Positions 30,103-64,000 are shown, counted from the first letter of the stretch. The stretch is DNA of 64,000 nt from a virus (IMGVR_UViG_2693429668_000006), one strand, 5' to 3'. The notes: generated by a model from the sequence alone, not told the origin. Numbers and translations are program-made.

Positions 30103-30431
30103 TGATGCCCGCCAATTGGCGGGCATCTGTTCTCTGTAAAGGTGTCTGGCATCGTCTGGTTCGTTAACGTTTACTAAACCAATGGTGACAAAAATTAGTT
30201 ATCTTTGAAAAATAAAGGTTGCATGAAAAGAAGGGGTATGCGTTAATAGCATCGTTGGTTTGCAAGACAGACCTTATGTAAGCAGTTTTAGTAAAGCAGT
30301 CTCAGTTCAGTGTTATCTTCTGATTTCCCTTCTTCGTGAGTCTCCTCCTTAAGTGCCTAAGTAAGTCCCAATCTATACAGATCAAATTCTCGCCGCACTA
30401 TGTGGCTCACAAAATTAAGAAGGTAATATCT

Positions 30432-30647
30432 ATGTCTAATAAAATGACTGGTTTAGTAAAATGGTTTAACTCTGATAAAGGCTTTGGCTTTATTTCTCCT
30501 GCTGATGGCAGTAAAGATGTTTTTGTACATTTTTCGGCAATTCAGAGTAATAATTTCCGCACTTTGGAAGAAGGCCAGCAGGTCGAATTCTCTATCGAGA
30601 ATGGGGCTAAAGGCCCAGCAGCAGCAAATGTCGTTGCTCTAAGCTGA
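30432..30647 (+). CDS. cold-shock protein (CspA family, 71 aa)
   Basis: RNP1/RNP2 motifs KGFGFI and VFVHF; GLVKWFN start; ~190-nt leader upstream. Confidence 0.85.
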
Positions 30648-30925
30648 TTCAACGCTGATGATCCTCATTTCTACAATAACGAAGACGGTGTAAGCCTGAG
30701 TGGATAGATTTGTAGGATTGTACAAGTTGAATAAATTAGCATGGTAAGGCCATGCTAATTAAATCGACACAACGGCCAGTTTATTCCATAAAAGTGAATT
30801 GCCCATTGTGGCGAAATGCGGGGTTGCCGCATGAATAGTCAAAGGCAGAAGCTAACTGCCGGCATGGCAAAACAAAGTGCGTAAGAGGAGTGACTTCCTC
30901 AACAAGCGCCATAATTCTTTATAAA

Positions 30926-43159: not shown

Positions 43160-43246
43160 TGGCGGAGAGTAATGGAATCGAACCATCATCGTTTGCACAA
43201 TGGGACGGTTTTCAAGACCGCTTGAGCACCATGCTCCCTACTCTCC
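43160..43246 (-). tRNA. tRNA-Ser (anticodon UGA)
   Basis: 87-nt cloverleaf with encoded CCA, anticodon loop CUUGAAA, long variable arm, T-loop TTCGATT. Confidence 0.8.
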
Positions 43247-43540
43247 AATTGTGTTGTGTGCTCCGTTTCGTGGAGCTAACGGCGGGTGATCAGACCGCAC
43301 CAGGTTGGACGTATTTCAGCGTTATGCTGTTGCAAGAGAGCCAAATTGTGATGGCCGGTGCTGATCTCCGGCATTGCCTACGTTAGCGGCCTTCAGGCAG
43401 TTCATCCGCTTGCTTCTACGTCGCACATCAGCCTGTGCATTCACCACAATGTTGAGAACACTGGTTGTCACGCTGCAACGCAACATTATATTCATAAATT
43501 GGGATATGAACCCGTTACGCCAATGTTCTCAATATTATGT

Positions 43541-43616
43541 TGGTGCCGGTTAACGGACTTGAACCGCTGGCCATTTGCTTACAAAGCGACTGCTCTACCA
43601 ACTGAGCTAAACCGGC
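43541..43616 (-). tRNA. tRNA-Thr (anticodon UGU), two mismatches in anticodon stem
   Basis: 76 nt; acceptor/D/T arms canonical; loop TTTGTAA; possibly pseudo-tRNA. Confidence 0.6.
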
Positions 43617-43620
43617 AATT

Positions 43621-43707
43621 TGGTGGGGAGTGATGGAGTCGAACCACCCGAGTCGCAATGACAGTAGATTTACAGTCTACACCGCTACCTCTACGGACTA
43701 ACTCCCC
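43621..43707 (-). tRNA. tRNA-Tyr (anticodon GUA)
   Basis: 87 nt; anticodon arm GTAGA-CTGTAAA-TCTAC; long variable arm. Confidence 0.8.
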
Positions 43708-43712
43708 TAAAT

Positions 43713-43787
43713 TGGCGATGGTGGGTGGATTCGAACCACCGATCAGTTGGTTAACAGCCAACTGCTCTACCGCTGAGCTACACCATC
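43713..43787 (-). tRNA. tRNA-Asn (anticodon GUU)
   Basis: 75 nt; anticodon arm GTTGG-CTGTTAA-CCAAC; T-arm GGTGG-TTCGAAT-CCACC. Confidence 0.85.
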
Positions 43788-56988: not shown

Positions 56989-57510
56989 GTGAGCAATACA
57001 ACGATAGAGATTTTCTCTGGAGAGAAAGATTATGATCTAAACGGTTTTGATTGCGGCGAAGAGTCACTAAACGCCTTTTTAGCCAACCACTTAAAAAGGC
57101 AGCATGAGGGAAAAATTCTTCGTGCTTATGTGCTTTGCACTCAAGAAGAAAGGCCAAAAGTGTTAGGATATTACACTTTGTCAGGTAGTTGTTTTGAAAA
57201 GGAGTCCTTACCTTCAAGAAGCAAACAAAAGAAGGTTCCTTATCGGAATGTTCCAAGTGTTACTTTGGGTAGGCTGGCTTTGGACAAGTCCCTTCAAGGT
57301 CAAGGATTTGGCTCAATGCTTGTAACACATGCAATGCGCGTTGTGTACAATGCATCTCTTGCTGTAGGCATTCATGGACTTTTCGTTGAGGCGTTAAATG
57401 ACAAAGCCAAGGCGTTTTATAAAAGTTTAGGCTTTATCCAGCTGGTTGGTAACAACGAGCGTTCTTTGTTCTATCCTACAAAATCTATCGAAAAATTGTT
57501 CGAAGAATAA
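56989..57510 (+). CDS. tacT: GNAT acetyltransferase toxin (TacT-like)
   Basis: GTG start 8 nt after tacA stop; GNAT acetyl-CoA motif (RLALDKSLQGQGFGSMLV). Confidence 0.7.
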   Translation: MSNTTIEIFSGEKDYDLNGFDCGEESLNAFLANHLKRQHEGKILRAYVLCTQEERPKVLGYYTLSGSCFEKESLPSRSKQKKVPYRNVPSVTLGRLALDKSLQGQGFGSMLVTHAMRVVYNASLAVGIHGLFVEALNDKAKAFYKSLGFIQLVGNNERSLFYPTKSIEKLFEE

Positions 57511-59164: not shown

Positions 59165-62100
59165 TCAGTTACTTGTTGCCCCAACAGTACCTGCAAATTT
59201 CAGCCATTGACCTGACGGACTTCTATTACTACGGTAGTGATAAACGAGGATTGCGTTTGTAATCCCACCATAGTCAGCTTTGTGTGACGTCGTTAAACGA
59301 ATTGTATAATCACCGTTAGGTAGATTAAAAACTTCGATTATAGATTCTGCTAATTCTACAGCACCAAATCCCGTTATATTGTTGATACTGCCAGCATTGA
59401 ATCCCATAGCATCGCCAAAGCCAATCCAATAACTTTTGCTAAACGCCCCATTTGATTTTAGGTGGCTAATGAATGCGGACAAGCTCATGCCCATATCCCC
59501 ACCTGAAACAGAGGAAGTTCGCACAGTCATACTTGGAAGAGCACTGCTCTTCACATAGGAACTTAGAAGGTTTGTTACCTCTGTTTTCGTGTAAGCATTA
59601 AGGTTAGCCGCAGTCAAAGTTATATCGGCAGAGCCATCAAACGCCACACCAGCAATTTTCCTTGCTGTCTGCAATTTTGTGGCGGTTGCGGCATTACCAG
59701 TAGTGTTCTGGTTCCCATCTGCATTCACACCTGGAATGCTGTCTTTTTTAGTATATATCTGAGTCCAGTCCTCTTCGAACCCATAGCCATCACGTGATGA
59801 ACGGTAATACAATCCACCATTTTTATAATGCGCTCGGATTTGGAGAGTCCGACAACTACCTACGCCTATATAAAAATTTGCAACGATATAAGAATCCCCG
59901 GAGCGTGTAACATTATACGCACCTGATTCGGCATTCCACGGGACCGCACCACTAGCATCGGCATAAGTTCCAGTAGCGCGTCGAGCAAAAGCAGATACAT
60001 TTGCAGCTGTTAGTGTTATATCAGCAGAACCATCAAAAGACACGCCGCTTATTTTTCTAGCAGTTTGCAACTTCGTAGCTGTTGAAGCATTACCGTTCAA
60101 ACTACCATTTACGCCACCAGTAACATTTAGTCCATTACCAATGGACACAGCACCGCTGGTATTATTAATTGTAATAGGTCGCAAACCGTTCCATGAACCT
60201 AATGTGTCTCCTGATGCTGTTAGCATGAAATATGTGTTCGATCCATCATTACGGATAAAGAACCCAAAGCTACCGTAAGCAATGCGGAAACCATTTGCAT
60301 ATTTTGAAACGATCTCACCAGAAGACGTTAATCCGCCAGTTAACGCTCCTCCAGATAGTGGTAAAGCTCCGACATCAGCCGCAGTAGGCTTGTTTTTAGT
60401 GTTATACGCTCTGCGCCATCCTGGTGAATAGCTCGTCCCGTTAAATACATAGATAAACTCCGCATTAGTGAGAGCACCAGAGACACTCGCCGTTGTGGCC
60501 GTTGTTATACGGATCGTATAATTGTTTGAGCTACTACCGTTATTAAATACCTCTATAACAGCTCCTGCTAATGGAATAACGCCACAACCAGTTTCACTAT
60601 TTGGTATGGTTGCACTATTGGCATAGGCCCACGCACATCGAGCAATCCATGACTTTGTGTTAAATGCTCCATTATTTTGCAATAACGTCACTAACTGTGC
60701 TGTTGTTATTGCTCCGCCATTACTTCCTGTAGTTAACCAACCAGTAGGAGATGCCGGGCAACCTATATTTGCTGGCGACAAGGAAATATTTGCCGAGCCG
60801 TCAAACGACACCCCATTGATAGTACGCGCAGTCTGCAACTTCGTAGCAGTAGCCGCGTTGCCCGTTGTATTCTGATTACCAGTCGTATTAACACCTGGCA
60901 AATTAATATTCGCAGTACCATCAAAGCTCACGCCGCCGATAGTTCTTGCCGTCTGAAGTTTTGTAGCAGTTGCAGCATTACCAGTGGTGTTCTGATTACC
61001 CGTAGTGTTTACACCTGGAAGGTTAATATTTGCAGAACCGTCGAAAACAACTCCACCGATAGATCTTGCCGTCTGCAATTTCGTGGCTGTACTTGCATTA
61101 CCATTCAATGAACCAGTTAATCCACCTGTAACAGACAACGGACCTGAAACTGTTCCTCCGGTTGTTGGCAGTGCTCCAATATCTGATGGTGTAGGTTTCT
61201 GATGTGAGCTATACATCGTATAAACAACACCATCGGTAACGCTGGAAGGCTTACTCGCTGAATATGTTGGCGAGGTATAAATAGAAACTGTCGCATTTGC
61301 AGTACAATCCCAATGGATATTTACACGAGTCGCATAATTGCCAATCTCAACGTAAATATCATATGTATCGCCGGATGTGTTGATCCAGGCGAAATTCGTT
61401 AATCCGACAGCTGTACGCTTCCACAAAGCACCTGTAATCCCTTTGGGGTTTCCATTGCCTGCTCGTAGAACCAGTTCTGAAATGCCTGCCTGATGTGGGG
61501 AGCCGACGTTGTAACCAGCGCCACCAATCAATGCGATGTAAACGATGGAACTCGCTTGTGGCATGGTAACCGTAGCCAGTTTGAACCACCCTGCCCCGCC
61601 AGAGAAAGACATCGTTACTGAATTTAAAGTACCAATATCTTTCGGCGTTAATGTGATATCCGCAGTCAGTGCTTTACCGTTAACTTTTCGGTTAGATGGC
61701 ACCCTGCTATTCGCATTGTCATTGGCTGCTTTAACTGCTTTTGGCGTTGCGGCCAGCGATTCACTGGTGCTGTCGACAGCACTGCTAAGTTTCACAACAC
61801 CTTTAGTTGTAAGGCTTGCGTCTTCCATCGCAACTGCACCGGCAATCTCTTCAGCACGATCAGCAGCAGCTTCCGCACGGGTCGCAGCGGATTCAGCAGC
61901 AGTTTTGCTCTGAGATGCTGCCGTCGCACTGCCTGCCGCCTCTGTTGCTTTCGTGGATGCCGTCGTGGCACTGCCCTTCGCTGCTGACGCCTGTCTGGTC
62001 GCCTCATCTTTTGAAGCAGACGCAGATGATGCCGATGACGCCGCCGAACTGGCGGACGATGCGGCAGCCGTTTTTGAGGATTCTGCGCTGGTTTCCGACG

Positions 62101-63190
62101 CTTTCGCGTTCGTTTCGGATGTCTTCGCTGCGGAAGCAGACCTCGCTGCTGCGCTAGCCTGTTCAGTGGCTTCGCCAGCCTTCGTTGTGGCTGTTGAAGC
62201 AGACGATGCGGCACTTTCTGCCGATTTTCCGGCGGCGGTGGCACTGGCTGAGGCCTGCCCGGCACTTGTTGACGCGGCACTGGCAGACGACGCAGCCGCT
62301 GTTTTTGAGCCTGCCGCAGCTGAGGCACTCTGTGCTGCTGCCGTCTCAGAAGACTTAGCGTTCGTCTCGGACGTTTTTGCCGCCTTCGCGGAATTGCCTG
62401 CCGCTGTTGCCGAGGAGGCTGCACTACTGGCGCTCAAGGATGCGTTCGTTTCTGATGATTTCGCTGCCTCTTTTGAGGCCGCCGCATCCCGGGCTGAGGT
62501 GGCAGCTTCTGACGCTTTCGTGGTCGCGGTGGATGCAGAAGTGGCTGCTGATTGTTGTGACGCTGCGGCATTCGTTTCAGATTTTTTCGCAGCAGTTGCA
62601 CTCGCACTTGCGGCACTTTGTGAGGATGCCGCAGCGGATGCACTTTGAGACGCTTGAGAGGCTTTTTCTCCAGCGGTATTGGCGCTTTCTGCTGCTGCGG
62701 CAGCACTGGCCGCTGCCTCACGAGCTTTGTCGCCAGCAGCATCAATCGCGTCAGTGTTATTTTTATACCACTCAACGTTTTCGTTGTGCTCGTTGACGAT
62801 CTGCATTAGCGGCTTAACGGTTACTTCTGTACCGTCTTCACGCTCGATTGTCACCTCATCCAGAGCAGTCAACCAACTGCGCATAGACTTGGAATCAGCC
62901 GACATACGCGACATTAGTGCTGTAAAGCGCGCGCTAAACTGTGTTAAGTCGCCTTCATAGGTCGTAATGATTCGGCACGGAACCTCAGACTGAGTTTCGC
63001 CGGTATAAGGTTCTGAGAGAACAATATTCGTATCGCTTATTACGCGCTTGATCTCATACAGCTTATTGTCGGGGCCAATGACGATCATCCCCGGCAACAC
63101 ACCATTAGCTGTTACGTTCCAGGCTGTCCCTGCCCCAACCAGAGTATTGCTACCCTGTGTAAATGTGATAGTACCTTCCCTGTACCACAT
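59165..63190 (-). CDS. tail fiber protein (1341 aa) with Ala/Ser-rich coiled region and T4 gp34/gp37-type fiber repeats
   Basis: ~200-aa Ala/Ser/Thr/Lys low-complexity segment; repeated GNASTATKLQTAR.I.GV.FDGSA.I.L units (>=5). Confidence 0.8.
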   Translation of the reverse strand: MWYREGTITFTQGSNTLVGAGTAWNVTANGVLPGMIVIGPDNKLYEIKRVISDTNIVLSEPYTGETQSEVPCRIITTYEGDLTQFSARFTALMSRMSADSKSMRSWLTALDEVTIEREDGTEVTVKPLMQIVNEHNENVEWYKNNTDAIDAAGDKAREAAASAAAAAESANTAGEKASQASQSASAAASSQSAASASATAAKKSETNAAASQQSAATSASTATTKASEAATSARDAAASKEAAKSSETNASLSASSAASSATAAGNSAKAAKTSETNAKSSETAAAQSASAAAGSKTAAASSASAASTSAGQASASATAAGKSAESAASSASTATTKAGEATEQASAAARSASAAKTSETNAKASETSAESSKTAAASSASSAASSASSASASKDEATRQASAAKGSATTASTKATEAAGSATAASQSKTAAESAATRAEAAADRAEEIAGAVAMEDASLTTKGVVKLSSAVDSTSESLAATPKAVKAANDNANSRVPSNRKVNGKALTADITLTPKDIGTLNSVTMSFSGGAGWFKLATVTMPQASSIVYIALIGGAGYNVGSPHQAGISELVLRAGNGNPKGITGALWKRTAVGLTNFAWINTSGDTYDIYVEIGNYATRVNIHWDCTANATVSIYTSPTYSASKPSSVTDGVVYTMYSSHQKPTPSDIGALPTTGGTVSGPLSVTGGLTGSLNGNASTATKLQTARSIGGVVFDGSANINLPGVNTTGNQNTTGNAATATKLQTARTIGGVSFDGTANINLPGVNTTGNQNTTGNAATATKLQTARTINGVSFDGSANISLSPANIGCPASPTGWLTTGSNGGAITTAQLVTLLQNNGAFNTKSWIARCAWAYANSATIPNSETGCGVIPLAGAVIEVFNNGSSSNNYTIRITTATTASVSGALTNAEFIYVFNGTSYSPGWRRAYNTKNKPTAADVGALPLSGGALTGGLTSSGEIVSKYANGFRIAYGSFGFFIRNDGSNTYFMLTASGDTLGSWNGLRPITINNTSGAVSIGNGLNVTGGVNGSLNGNASTATKLQTARKISGVSFDGSADITLTAANVSAFARRATGTYADASGAVPWNAESGAYNVTRSGDSYIVANFYIGVGSCRTLQIRAHYKNGGLYYRSSRDGYGFEEDWTQIYTKKDSIPGVNADGNQNTTGNAATATKLQTARKIAGVAFDGSADITLTAANLNAYTKTEVTNLLSSYVKSSALPSMTVRTSSVSGGDMGMSLSAFISHLKSNGAFSKSYWIGFGDAMGFNAGSINNITGFGAVELAESIIEVFNLPNGDYTIRLTTSHKADYGGITNAILVYHYRSNRSPSGQWLKFAGTVGATSN

Positions 63191-63232
63191 GTTGAATATG
63201 CTCCTTGATTTGGCGGGTTATCCTTGCCCGCC

Positions 63233-63994: not shown

Positions 63995-64000
63995 CGCCGA

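Follow-up and report, generated by a model that had tools for sequence, protein, structure and literature searches.

How is the tail fibre encoded on the minus strand at positions 59165-63190 of the viral sequence IMGVR_UViG_2693429668_000006 built, and to which class of fibres does it belong? The stretch of DNA analysed here, referred to as the window, is 64,000 nucleotides long, and an earlier note made from its sequence had described the product as a fibre combining an Ala/Ser-rich segment of about 200 residues with repeats of the bacteriophage T4 long-tail-fibre type. That the gene encodes a tail fibre is borne out by matches to PHROG tail-fibre families, by its position between J and a holin gene, by 97% DNA identity to a tail-fibre gene of Escherichia phage Cyrano, and by sequence matches to the Mu S/S' and T4 gp34 structures in the PDB. 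The rest of that description needs revision. Very probably, the product is the side (lateral) fibre of a siphovirus phage-plasmid of Escherichia coli that resembles SSU5; it is most likely a homotrimer assembled from modules of different ancestry, including a coiled-coil rod of the lambda Stf type and two knobs of the Mu S' type, with a short, five-fold repeated unit at the borders of the exchangeable distal domains.

The identity of the gene was established from its relatives and its setting. Over its full length, the DNA is 97% identical to the gene annotated as "tail fiber protein" in Cyrano (OV696614, CYRAN_21) and agrees completely (100%) with a gene labelled "phage tail protein" on plasmid p19KM1803_1, which originates from a Swiss cat isolate of E. 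coli and differs from the window by one mismatch in 12,836 nucleotides. In both elements the order of genes is tape measure, M, L, K, I, J, the fibre gene, holin, endolysin and Rz (spanin), and the plasmid partition and replication genes come after the lysis genes. Moreover, nucleotides 1-515 of the gene are 77.9% identical to the tail-fibre gene of Salmonella phage SSU5. Because of these identities, the gene order and the 5' DNA shared with SSU5, the gene is identified, on sequence grounds, as the fibre gene next after J in an E. coli phage-plasmid of the SSU5 type. Its product (P0001) stands at the head of a cluster comprising 182 sequences. Sixty-seven complete E. coli genomes contain 80% or more of the gene, and some part of it, chiefly the coiled-coil DNA, recurs in 4124 of 5426 complete genomes. 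Public databases already list the gene as a tail fibre, and its class is that of the well-known mosaic host-range proteins; the literature on SSU5-type phage-plasmids does not mention the fibre.

The open reading frame (ORF) is complete, and the features recognised within it are collected in Table 1. RefSeq places the start of the gene 92 (p19KM1803_1), 128 (pSCU-306-2) or 454 (pN1131_1) codons downstream of the ATG preceded by AAGGAG, and these shorter forms lack the conserved SSU5-type N-terminal domain. The long start at 63190 is favoured because of the Shine-Dalgarno sequence and because homology extends to the very beginning of the gene, with the PHROG profiles starting at residue 1 and the SSU5 DNA homology at nucleotide 1. 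A scan for promoters and terminators gave nothing above the expectation from shuffled sequence. In whole-protein and segment scans the N-terminal domain matched no Pfam model, including that of the lambda StfN domain (PF08400), while in two alleles (P0082 and P0095) a PF08400 N-terminus takes the place of residues 1-181. The N-terminal domain presumably anchors the fibre to the tail.

Table 1. Features of the tail-fibre gene and its product, with positions counted along the window
Feature	Residues	Window positions	Strand	Basis
Tail-fibre gene, complete, 1341 amino acids plus stop codon	1-1341	59165..63190	-	ORF list, ATG start
Shine-Dalgarno sequence AAGGAG, 10 nucleotides 5' of the ATG at 63190		63201..63206	-	Sequence read
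N-terminal domain, candidate tail-attachment module	1-150	62741..63190	-	SSU5 lineage
Ala/Ser-rich rod, 43 unbroken heptads	151-450	61841..62740	-	Periodicity, lambda Stf homology
Phage_fiber_2 (PF03406) unit, LTTKGVVKLSSAVDSTSESLAATPKAVKAANDNANSRVPSN	459-499	61694..61816	-	Pfam, 72.1 bits
Beta-sandwich domain, ending in KPTPSDIGALP	500-690	61121..61693	-	AlphaFold2 and Foldseek
Unit U1	697-724	61019..61102	-	Regular expression, profile, DNA repeat family
Unit U2	737-764	60899..60982	-	Regular expression, profile, DNA repeats
Unit U3	777-804	60779..60862	-	Regular expression, profile, DNA repeats
Internal knob, Mu S' type	805-934	60389..60778	-	phmmer to PDB 8ju3
KPTAADVGALP motif and Gp34_trimer (PF21446)	935-1032	60095..60388	-	Pfam, PDB
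Unit U4	1033-1060	60011..60094	-	Regular expression, profile, DNA repeats
gp37_C-type domain (PF12604)	1061-1164	59699..60010	-	Pfam segment scan, PDB
Unit U5	1165-1192	59615..59698	-	Regular expression, profile, DNA repeats
C-terminal tip, second Mu S'-type knob	1193-1341	59168..59614	-	Paralogy, AlphaFold2, Foldseek

The matching plasmid also raises the question of whether the present copy is still in use. In p19KM1803_1 an IS3-family transposase interrupts J, the gene immediately upstream of the fibre gene (NZ_CP151018.1, 43888-49951, just past the end of the window at 64000), as would suit an inert remnant, in which a defective phage-plasmid no longer uses its fibre gene. Against such decay, the ORF of 4 kb is intact and has a good ribosome-binding site, its cluster and the complete genomes that carry it are numerous (see above), J is intact in sister elements such as Cyrano, and the repeated units have been kept as protein despite near-saturated synonymous change. 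A remnant is thus considered rather unlikely, and this alternative concerns the present host only, not the identity of the gene.

The most conspicuous part of the protein is the Ala/Ser-rich region, which proved to be 300 residues long (151-450) rather than the 200 or so first estimated. It consists of 39.7% Ala, 23.7% Ser, 10.7% Thr, 7% Glu and 6.7% Lys (88% for the five together), the fraction of Ala, Ser and Thr being 0.70-0.78 in each block of 50 residues; Cys, Phe, His, Met, Pro, Val, Trp and Tyr are absent, and Gly amounts to only 3%. Simple low complexity, as the region had initially been read, is not an adequate description of it. Alanine recurs with periods of 3.5 and 7.0 residues (power of 8.1 at 3.5, versus 1.75 for the 95th percentile of shuffled sequences), and the region can be written as heptads of the pattern A-x-x-S-A-x-x, with Ala at position 1 in every one of them (43/43), Ser at position 4 in 77% and Ala at position 5 in 70%. 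These heptads run through the entire region without a stutter. Furthermore, lambda orf-401, which corresponds to the N-terminal portion of Stf, is 72% identical to the region over 148 amino acids (Stf 205-352), and a further 185 amino acids, extending into the PF03406 unit that follows the rod, are 54% identical to the same protein; at the DNA level, stf genes from many lambdoid coliphages match the rod with 87-92% identity. In Ur-lambda, the side fibre is a trimer in which residues 102-393 of gpStf make up the proximal coiled-coil domain, followed by a hinge region at 394-422 (PMC12617516). Because of its homology to this coiled coil, the region comprising residues 151-450 is assigned as the proximal coiled-coil rod of a Stf-type fibre. 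It is predicted to be a trimeric coiled coil, which at 0.148 nm per residue would measure about 44 nm.

An intrinsically disordered, flexible tether in place of a rigid rod would agree with the extreme composition of these 300 residues (Ala and Ser together 63%, without aromatic or large aliphatic residues for a core) and with the failure of any Pfam model to match them. It is nevertheless highly improbable in view of the Ala that is invariant over 43 heptads without a stutter, of the Ser and Ala fixed three and four positions further on, and of the lack of Pro and scarcity of Gly.

Three ORFs in frames other than that of the fibre also cover the coiled-coil DNA (61792-62648), one of 210 amino acids on the minus strand and two, of 231 and 113 amino acids, on the plus strand. 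They were rejected as genes, since long overlapping ORFs are an expected by-product of periodic sequence rich in GCN and TCN codons. The antisense "orf206b" in the reference annotation of lambda, which lies over the homologous part of stf, is probably likewise no gene.

Between the rod and the distal half lies a single unit of the Pfam family Phage_fiber_2. When a segment of 80 amino acids was scanned alone, PF03406 matched residues 459-499 with an E value of 2.7e-20, far above its cut-off of 22 bits. The same match went unreported in the scan of the whole protein and in that of residues 151-508, both of which include the Ala/Ser-rich region; the loss is probably caused by the way in which HMMER handles the compositional bias of this adjacent region. 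Such loss beside an Ala/Ser-rich coiled coil constitutes a general trap for the automatic annotation of Stf-type fibres. The PF03406 unit is found in Mu S as well (residues 105-156 of PDB 5yvq/8ju3), and in lambda Stf it occupies residues 360-394, on the proximal border of the lambda hinge (394-422). By position, it may serve as a hinge or junction connecting the coiled coil to the distal part.

The second repetitive feature is a unit of 28 residues with the motif GNA[AS]TATKLQTAR.I.GV.FDG[ST]A.I.L. At least five copies had been noticed at the outset, and both the regular expression and a profile recovered exactly five (U1 to U5), beginning at residues 697, 737, 777, 1033 and 1165. The first three are arranged in tandem with a period of 40 amino acids, detected by Tandem Repeats Finder as a 120-nucleotide period at 60843-61103, and a search for DNA repeats recovered all five. 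A profile derived from the units scored 82-87 bits on each copy and revealed a weak half-unit at residues 502-521; 18 of the 44 columns in the alignment of the units are invariant, far beyond chance. Identity among the five units is 79-89% at the protein level and 68-74% at the DNA level, and between 50% and 74% of the codons for identical residues differ from unit to unit, which amounts to near-saturated synonymous change. Since the DNA has diverged while the protein has been kept, the peptide must be under strong constraint. With the segment consisting of U4, the gp37_C domain and U5 as query, tblastn retrieved 489 phage records, including T-even-like, P1, P2-like and Mu-like phages. The five units are a real and widespread fibre element.

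These units had been taken for the Pfam Phage_fibre_2 repeat of T4 gp34 and gp37, and the fibre accordingly for a long tail fibre of the T4 kind, in which the low-complexity stretch is a spacer. There is some T4-type character in the protein: Gp34_trimer and gp37_C domains are present, and one copy of the unit occurs near the N-terminus of T6 gp37 (residues 79-110), as it does in many T-even-like, P1, P2-like and Mu-like fibres. This likeness does not extend to the five units themselves. The Pfam scan proposed in the earlier note left them unrecognised, by PF03406 or any other model, whether the query was the whole protein, the three-unit array, a single unit or the U4-gp37_C-U5 segment (E up to 10), and the unit of T6 gp37 gave no PF03406 match either (E up to 10). 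PF03406 matched the separate element at residues 459-499 instead, which served as a positive control together with a relative of the fibre (P0061) in which the family scored 65.6 bits outside the positions of the five units. In T4 gp34, gp35, gp36 and gp37, the string FDG[ST] is absent, and phmmer --max (HMMER filters off) found no match to the unit array. The published repeats of T4 gp34 are a different, alpha-beta unit (PMC5537660), which by eye is nearer to the PF03406 unit than to the five units, although PF03406 gave it no score. Moreover, the present fibre is the product of a single gene beside J in a siphovirus-type tail module, not of a gp34-35-36-37 assembly, and the stretch read as a spacer forms a strict coiled coil that has its homologue in lambda Stf. 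A T4-type fibre is accordingly a quite improbable reading, and in its strict form it is refuted by the search of the T4 fibre proteins and the PF03406 scan.

A longer form of the unit, with an insert of seven residues, is seen at the C-terminus of phage L Dec and in the PhiM1 tail fibre gp47 (PDB 8vbx). Among PDB sequences, the three-unit array gave only a marginal match to Dec, and the array and profile searches of the PDB provided no solved structure that could be named for the short unit. The units may form short trimeric beta connectors.

Distal to the rod, the units alternate with domains whose relatives are found in several types of fibres. For the first of these (residues 500-690) AlphaFold2 predicted an all-beta fold, with a predicted local distance difference test (pLDDT) score of 71.1 and a predicted template modelling (pTM) score of 0.67; Foldseek aligned it with Pantoea WceF (PDB 6tgf; E 3e-7, TMq 0.55, root-mean-square deviation 2.8) and also with tailspikes of Acinetobacter phages, while its homologues in prophage fibres of E. 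coli and Salmonella are 50-75% identical. The internal knob (805-934) matched residues 186-326 of PDB 8ju3, a Mu S/S' fusion, with a phmmer domain E value of 1.5e-27. The Gp34_trimer domain was the sole Pfam match in the scan of the whole protein (105.7 bits, E 2.7e-30, cut-off 27), and residues 931-1033 matched T4 gp34 (4uxe/5nxf) and Mu S (5yvq) in the PDB, with E values of about 1e-21 for residues 941-1033 (4uxe/5nxf/5nxh/9x3r). The gp37_C model was matched at residues 1076-1162 (31.6 bits, cut-off 22.5) when the segment 1029-1200 was scanned, and was missing from the output for the whole protein; this model, PF12604, finds no match in T4 gp37 itself. The domain also matched residues 324-411 of 8ju3 by sequence, and over the whole fibre phmmer aligned three stretches with that structure (full E 4.7e-55). 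The motif KPT[PA][SA]D[IV]GALP appears twice, at residues 665-675 (61166-61198) and 936-946 (60353-60385), both on the minus strand; its counterpart in T4 gp34 is PPQPSDIGALP.

The C-terminal tip is a second knob of the same type. In a segment comparison, residues 1215-1341 were paralogous to the internal knob at 805-934 (37% identity, E 7e-14), a relationship missed by blastp of the fibre against itself, which returned the identity match only. AlphaFold2 gave the C-terminal region a pLDDT of 81.6 and a pTM of 0.75, and the only significant match of its fold in the PDB was 8ju3 (E 3.6e-8, TMq 0.71). An exhaustive search of 1.84 billion representatives yielded 71 relatives of the tip, while a word-indexed homologue search with the C-terminal domain yielded only 5 fragments. 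The domain is terminal in close relatives and usually internal in distant ones. The tip is probably the receptor-binding end of the fibre. The two versions of the Mu fibre have been stated, in a secondary source, to recognise the outer and the inner core of lipopolysaccharide (LPS) (PMC11821841), and by analogy the LPS core is a reasonable guess for the receptor here.

Comparison of alleles revealed how these domains are exchanged. In a block identity map of the 120 best homologues of the fibre, the replaced segments were 1-181, 202-356, 499-664, 805-934, 1055-1155, and 1189 or 1211 to the end. The distal cassettes begin right after conserved units, namely the PF03406 unit, U3, U4 and U5 in that order, and the C-terminal borders of two of them coincide with the KPTxxDxGALP motif. 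Thus the beta-sandwich (499-664) is replaced in alleles of 1309 amino acids, the internal knob in those of 1362 (the replaced segment starting directly after U3), and the gp37_C domain in those of 1342, while in alleles of 1384-1622 amino acids the region 1193-1341 has given way to other tips, often with a Peptidase_S74 intramolecular chaperone domain. U5 is both the right junction of the gp37_C swap and the left junction of the tip swaps at 1189/1211. The tandem array likewise varies, consisting of two units in proteins of 1301 amino acids and three in those of 1341.

Two alleles define the junctions more closely. The DNA of pSCU-306-2 is 100% identical to the present gene save for nucleotides 3129 to about 3500; the left junction lies inside U4, after the shared GNASTATKLQTAR codons (nucleotide 3129, residue 1043, window position 60062), and identity resumes at the start of U5. 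In pN1131_1, an exact, in-register deletion of 120 nucleotides has removed one unit across U1 and U2 (residues 706-745), and coiled-coil residues 201-400 are present in a divergent version. The domains that vary from allele to allele have the units at their borders, and the allele comparison supports a role of the units as crossover sites for the swapping of cassettes and for changes in unit number. The suggestion of a variable repeat number and variable distal domains, with recombination at the repeats, has thus held up. Exchange at conserved motifs is an established theme among tail fibres, as in the T-even gp37/gp38 locus and the fibres of P2, Mu, P1 and lambda.

The breakpoints might lie at the units for another reason, namely that only chimeras joined at domain borders fold and survive, the units being structural connectors and nothing more. 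Units so divergent in DNA and in codons are a poor substrate for homologous recombination, and two cassettes have their C-terminal borders at the other motif, KPTxxDxGALP, both of which speak for selection. The switch in pSCU-306-2, however, falls inside U4 and ends where U5 begins, and the deletion in pN1131_1 is exactly in register between U1 and U2; such junctions are the signatures expected of crossover within a conserved stretch. As the sole explanation, selection for folding is regarded as doubtful, and the two views are not exclusive of each other.

Six-frame translations of the whole plasmid, searched for Mu U/U', lambda Tfa and T4/T6 gp38 but not for gp57A, yielded no homologue, and no gene for any of these is annotated. 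For lambda Tfa and Mu U/U', the negative extends to E values up to 1; the fibre gene is followed directly by the holin gene. The fibre therefore likely folds without a dedicated chaperone of the Tfa or U type. From this point a bolder proposal can be made, in which the two Mu S'-type knobs, one lateral (805-934) and one terminal (1215-1341), are independently exchangeable and read two surface glycans at once, assembly needs no dedicated chaperone, and the units have been selected as "universal joints". This proposal is unlikely as it stands. If it were true, the scrambled codons of the units would limit intragenic deletion yet let cassettes move, and this movement would take place among lambdoid prophages, P1/Mu-type myoviruses and SSU5-type phage-plasmids.

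The preferred explanation of the gene, that of a side tail fibre of mosaic ancestry on an SSU5-like phage-plasmid, can be put together as a mechanism. The SSU5-type N-terminus would anchor the homotrimer to the tail, the rigid rod of 43 heptads would form the shaft, and a hinge would follow at the PF03406 unit. Beyond it would extend a beaded distal part, in which the beta-sandwich, the internal Mu S'-type knob, Gp34_trimer, gp37_C and the terminal Mu S'-type knob alternate with units. The terminal knob, and possibly the internal one too, would bind a glycan of the host surface, for instance the LPS core, and so set the host range. Reversible adsorption, ahead of receptor engagement by the central fibre J, would be accelerated by the side fibre, a role reported for lambda Stf (PMC12617516).

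Several points weigh against this explanation. We infer the trimeric state, the length of the rod, the role of the units as beta connectors and the receptor. At 68-74% DNA identity from unit to unit, intragenic crossover driven by homology should be inefficient, and the junctions at units could partly reflect selection for foldable chimeras and not preferred crossover. In the PDB, the unit profile found only weak matches, to PhiM1 gp47 (8vbx, E 5e-4) and phage L Dec (E 6e-4), and the C-terminus of Dec has been modelled only at low resolution (PMC6449081). The chaperone search took in four chaperone families only. Finally, with J split by the IS3 element, the copy in the window may sit in a defective phage, for which infectious tails are perhaps impossible.

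Side tail fibres determine which strains a phage or phage-plasmid can reach, and SSU5-like phage-plasmids are common in E. coli. The cassette map provides exact joints for the engineering of host range (the PF03406 unit, U3, U4, U5 and the KPTxxDxGALP motifs), and it exposes modules common to lambdoid prophages, Mu/P1-type phages and phage-plasmids. There are lessons for annotation as well, in that RefSeq starts in this gene family are often too far downstream and the widespread GNAxTATKLQTAR...FDGSA unit has no Pfam model. The cassette structure and the absent chaperone gene are of modest, specialist interest.

Other features of the element were observed in passing. Four tRNA genes are located at 43160-43787 on the minus strand (Ser-UGA, Thr-UGU, Tyr-GUA and Asn-GUU). 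Ser, Thr and Asn codons abound in the fibre gene, whose most frequent codons for Ser (TCA, 23%) and Thr (ACA, 33%) are read by tRNAs of this cluster. A full-length match to the Rfam cspA thermoregulator (185.7 bits) at 30254-30672 on the plus strand implies a leader of the cold-shock-protein type, from which a cspA-like gene on the phage-plasmid is probable. A KacT-like acetyltransferase toxin of the GNAT family is encoded at 56989-57510 on the plus strand, with a DUF1778 antitoxin ORF just upstream; the pair adjoins the lysis cassette and reads towards it. Outside the window, at 80827-91291 of NZ_CP151018.1, metG (methionine-tRNA ligase) and apbC, both genes of chromosomal type, are followed by a complete type I restriction-modification system.

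Among known fibres, lambda Stf (orf-401/orf-314 in lambda, gpStf in Ur-lambda) resembles the present one in its gene position just downstream of J (the lambda order being J, lom, stf, tfa), in the homologous Ala/Ser coiled-coil rod followed by the PF03406 unit, and, in some alleles of the present fibre (P0082 and P0095), in the StfN N-terminus (PF08400). In contrast to Stf, the fibre of the window has the SSU5-type anchor in place of PF08400, a perfectly regular rod of 43 heptads and no tfa after its gene, and its distal half is unrelated to the needle tip of lambda and T4 gp37. Also close are the Mu G(-) S' fibre and the variable parts of S in P1/P7. The Mu structure (8ju3) matches the PF03406 unit, the knob and gp37_C by sequence and the terminal knob by fold, and P1 Sv' aligns over the U4-gp37_C-U5 segment with 45% identity. 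Unlike Mu and P1, in which the fibre belongs to a myovirus, the host virion here is that of a siphovirus-type phage-plasmid; the annotations of Cyrano and p19KM1803_1, read without a search for inverted repeats, show no recombinase (Gin/Cin) or inverted alternative exon adjoining the fibre gene, and no homologue of the U/U' chaperones is present on the plasmid. The knob of Mu S' has gp37_C immediately after it; here, in contrast, the knob occurs twice, the copies being separated by Gp34_trimer, U4, gp37_C and U5. The T-even fibres share Gp34_trimer, gp37_C and a motif of the PSDIGALP type, together with the one unit copy in T6-type gp37. T4 gp34 and gp37 are without the motif of the five units, the repeats of gp34 being a different alpha-beta unit, and the T-even fibre is a kinked assembly of four proteins whose tip is formed with the assistance of gp38 and gp57A, unlike the single polypeptide with a coiled-coil rod described here. 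From the Cyrano tail fibre and the RefSeq "phage tail protein" of SSU5-like plasmids, finally, nothing substantial differs: these are the same gene, with the same neighbours.

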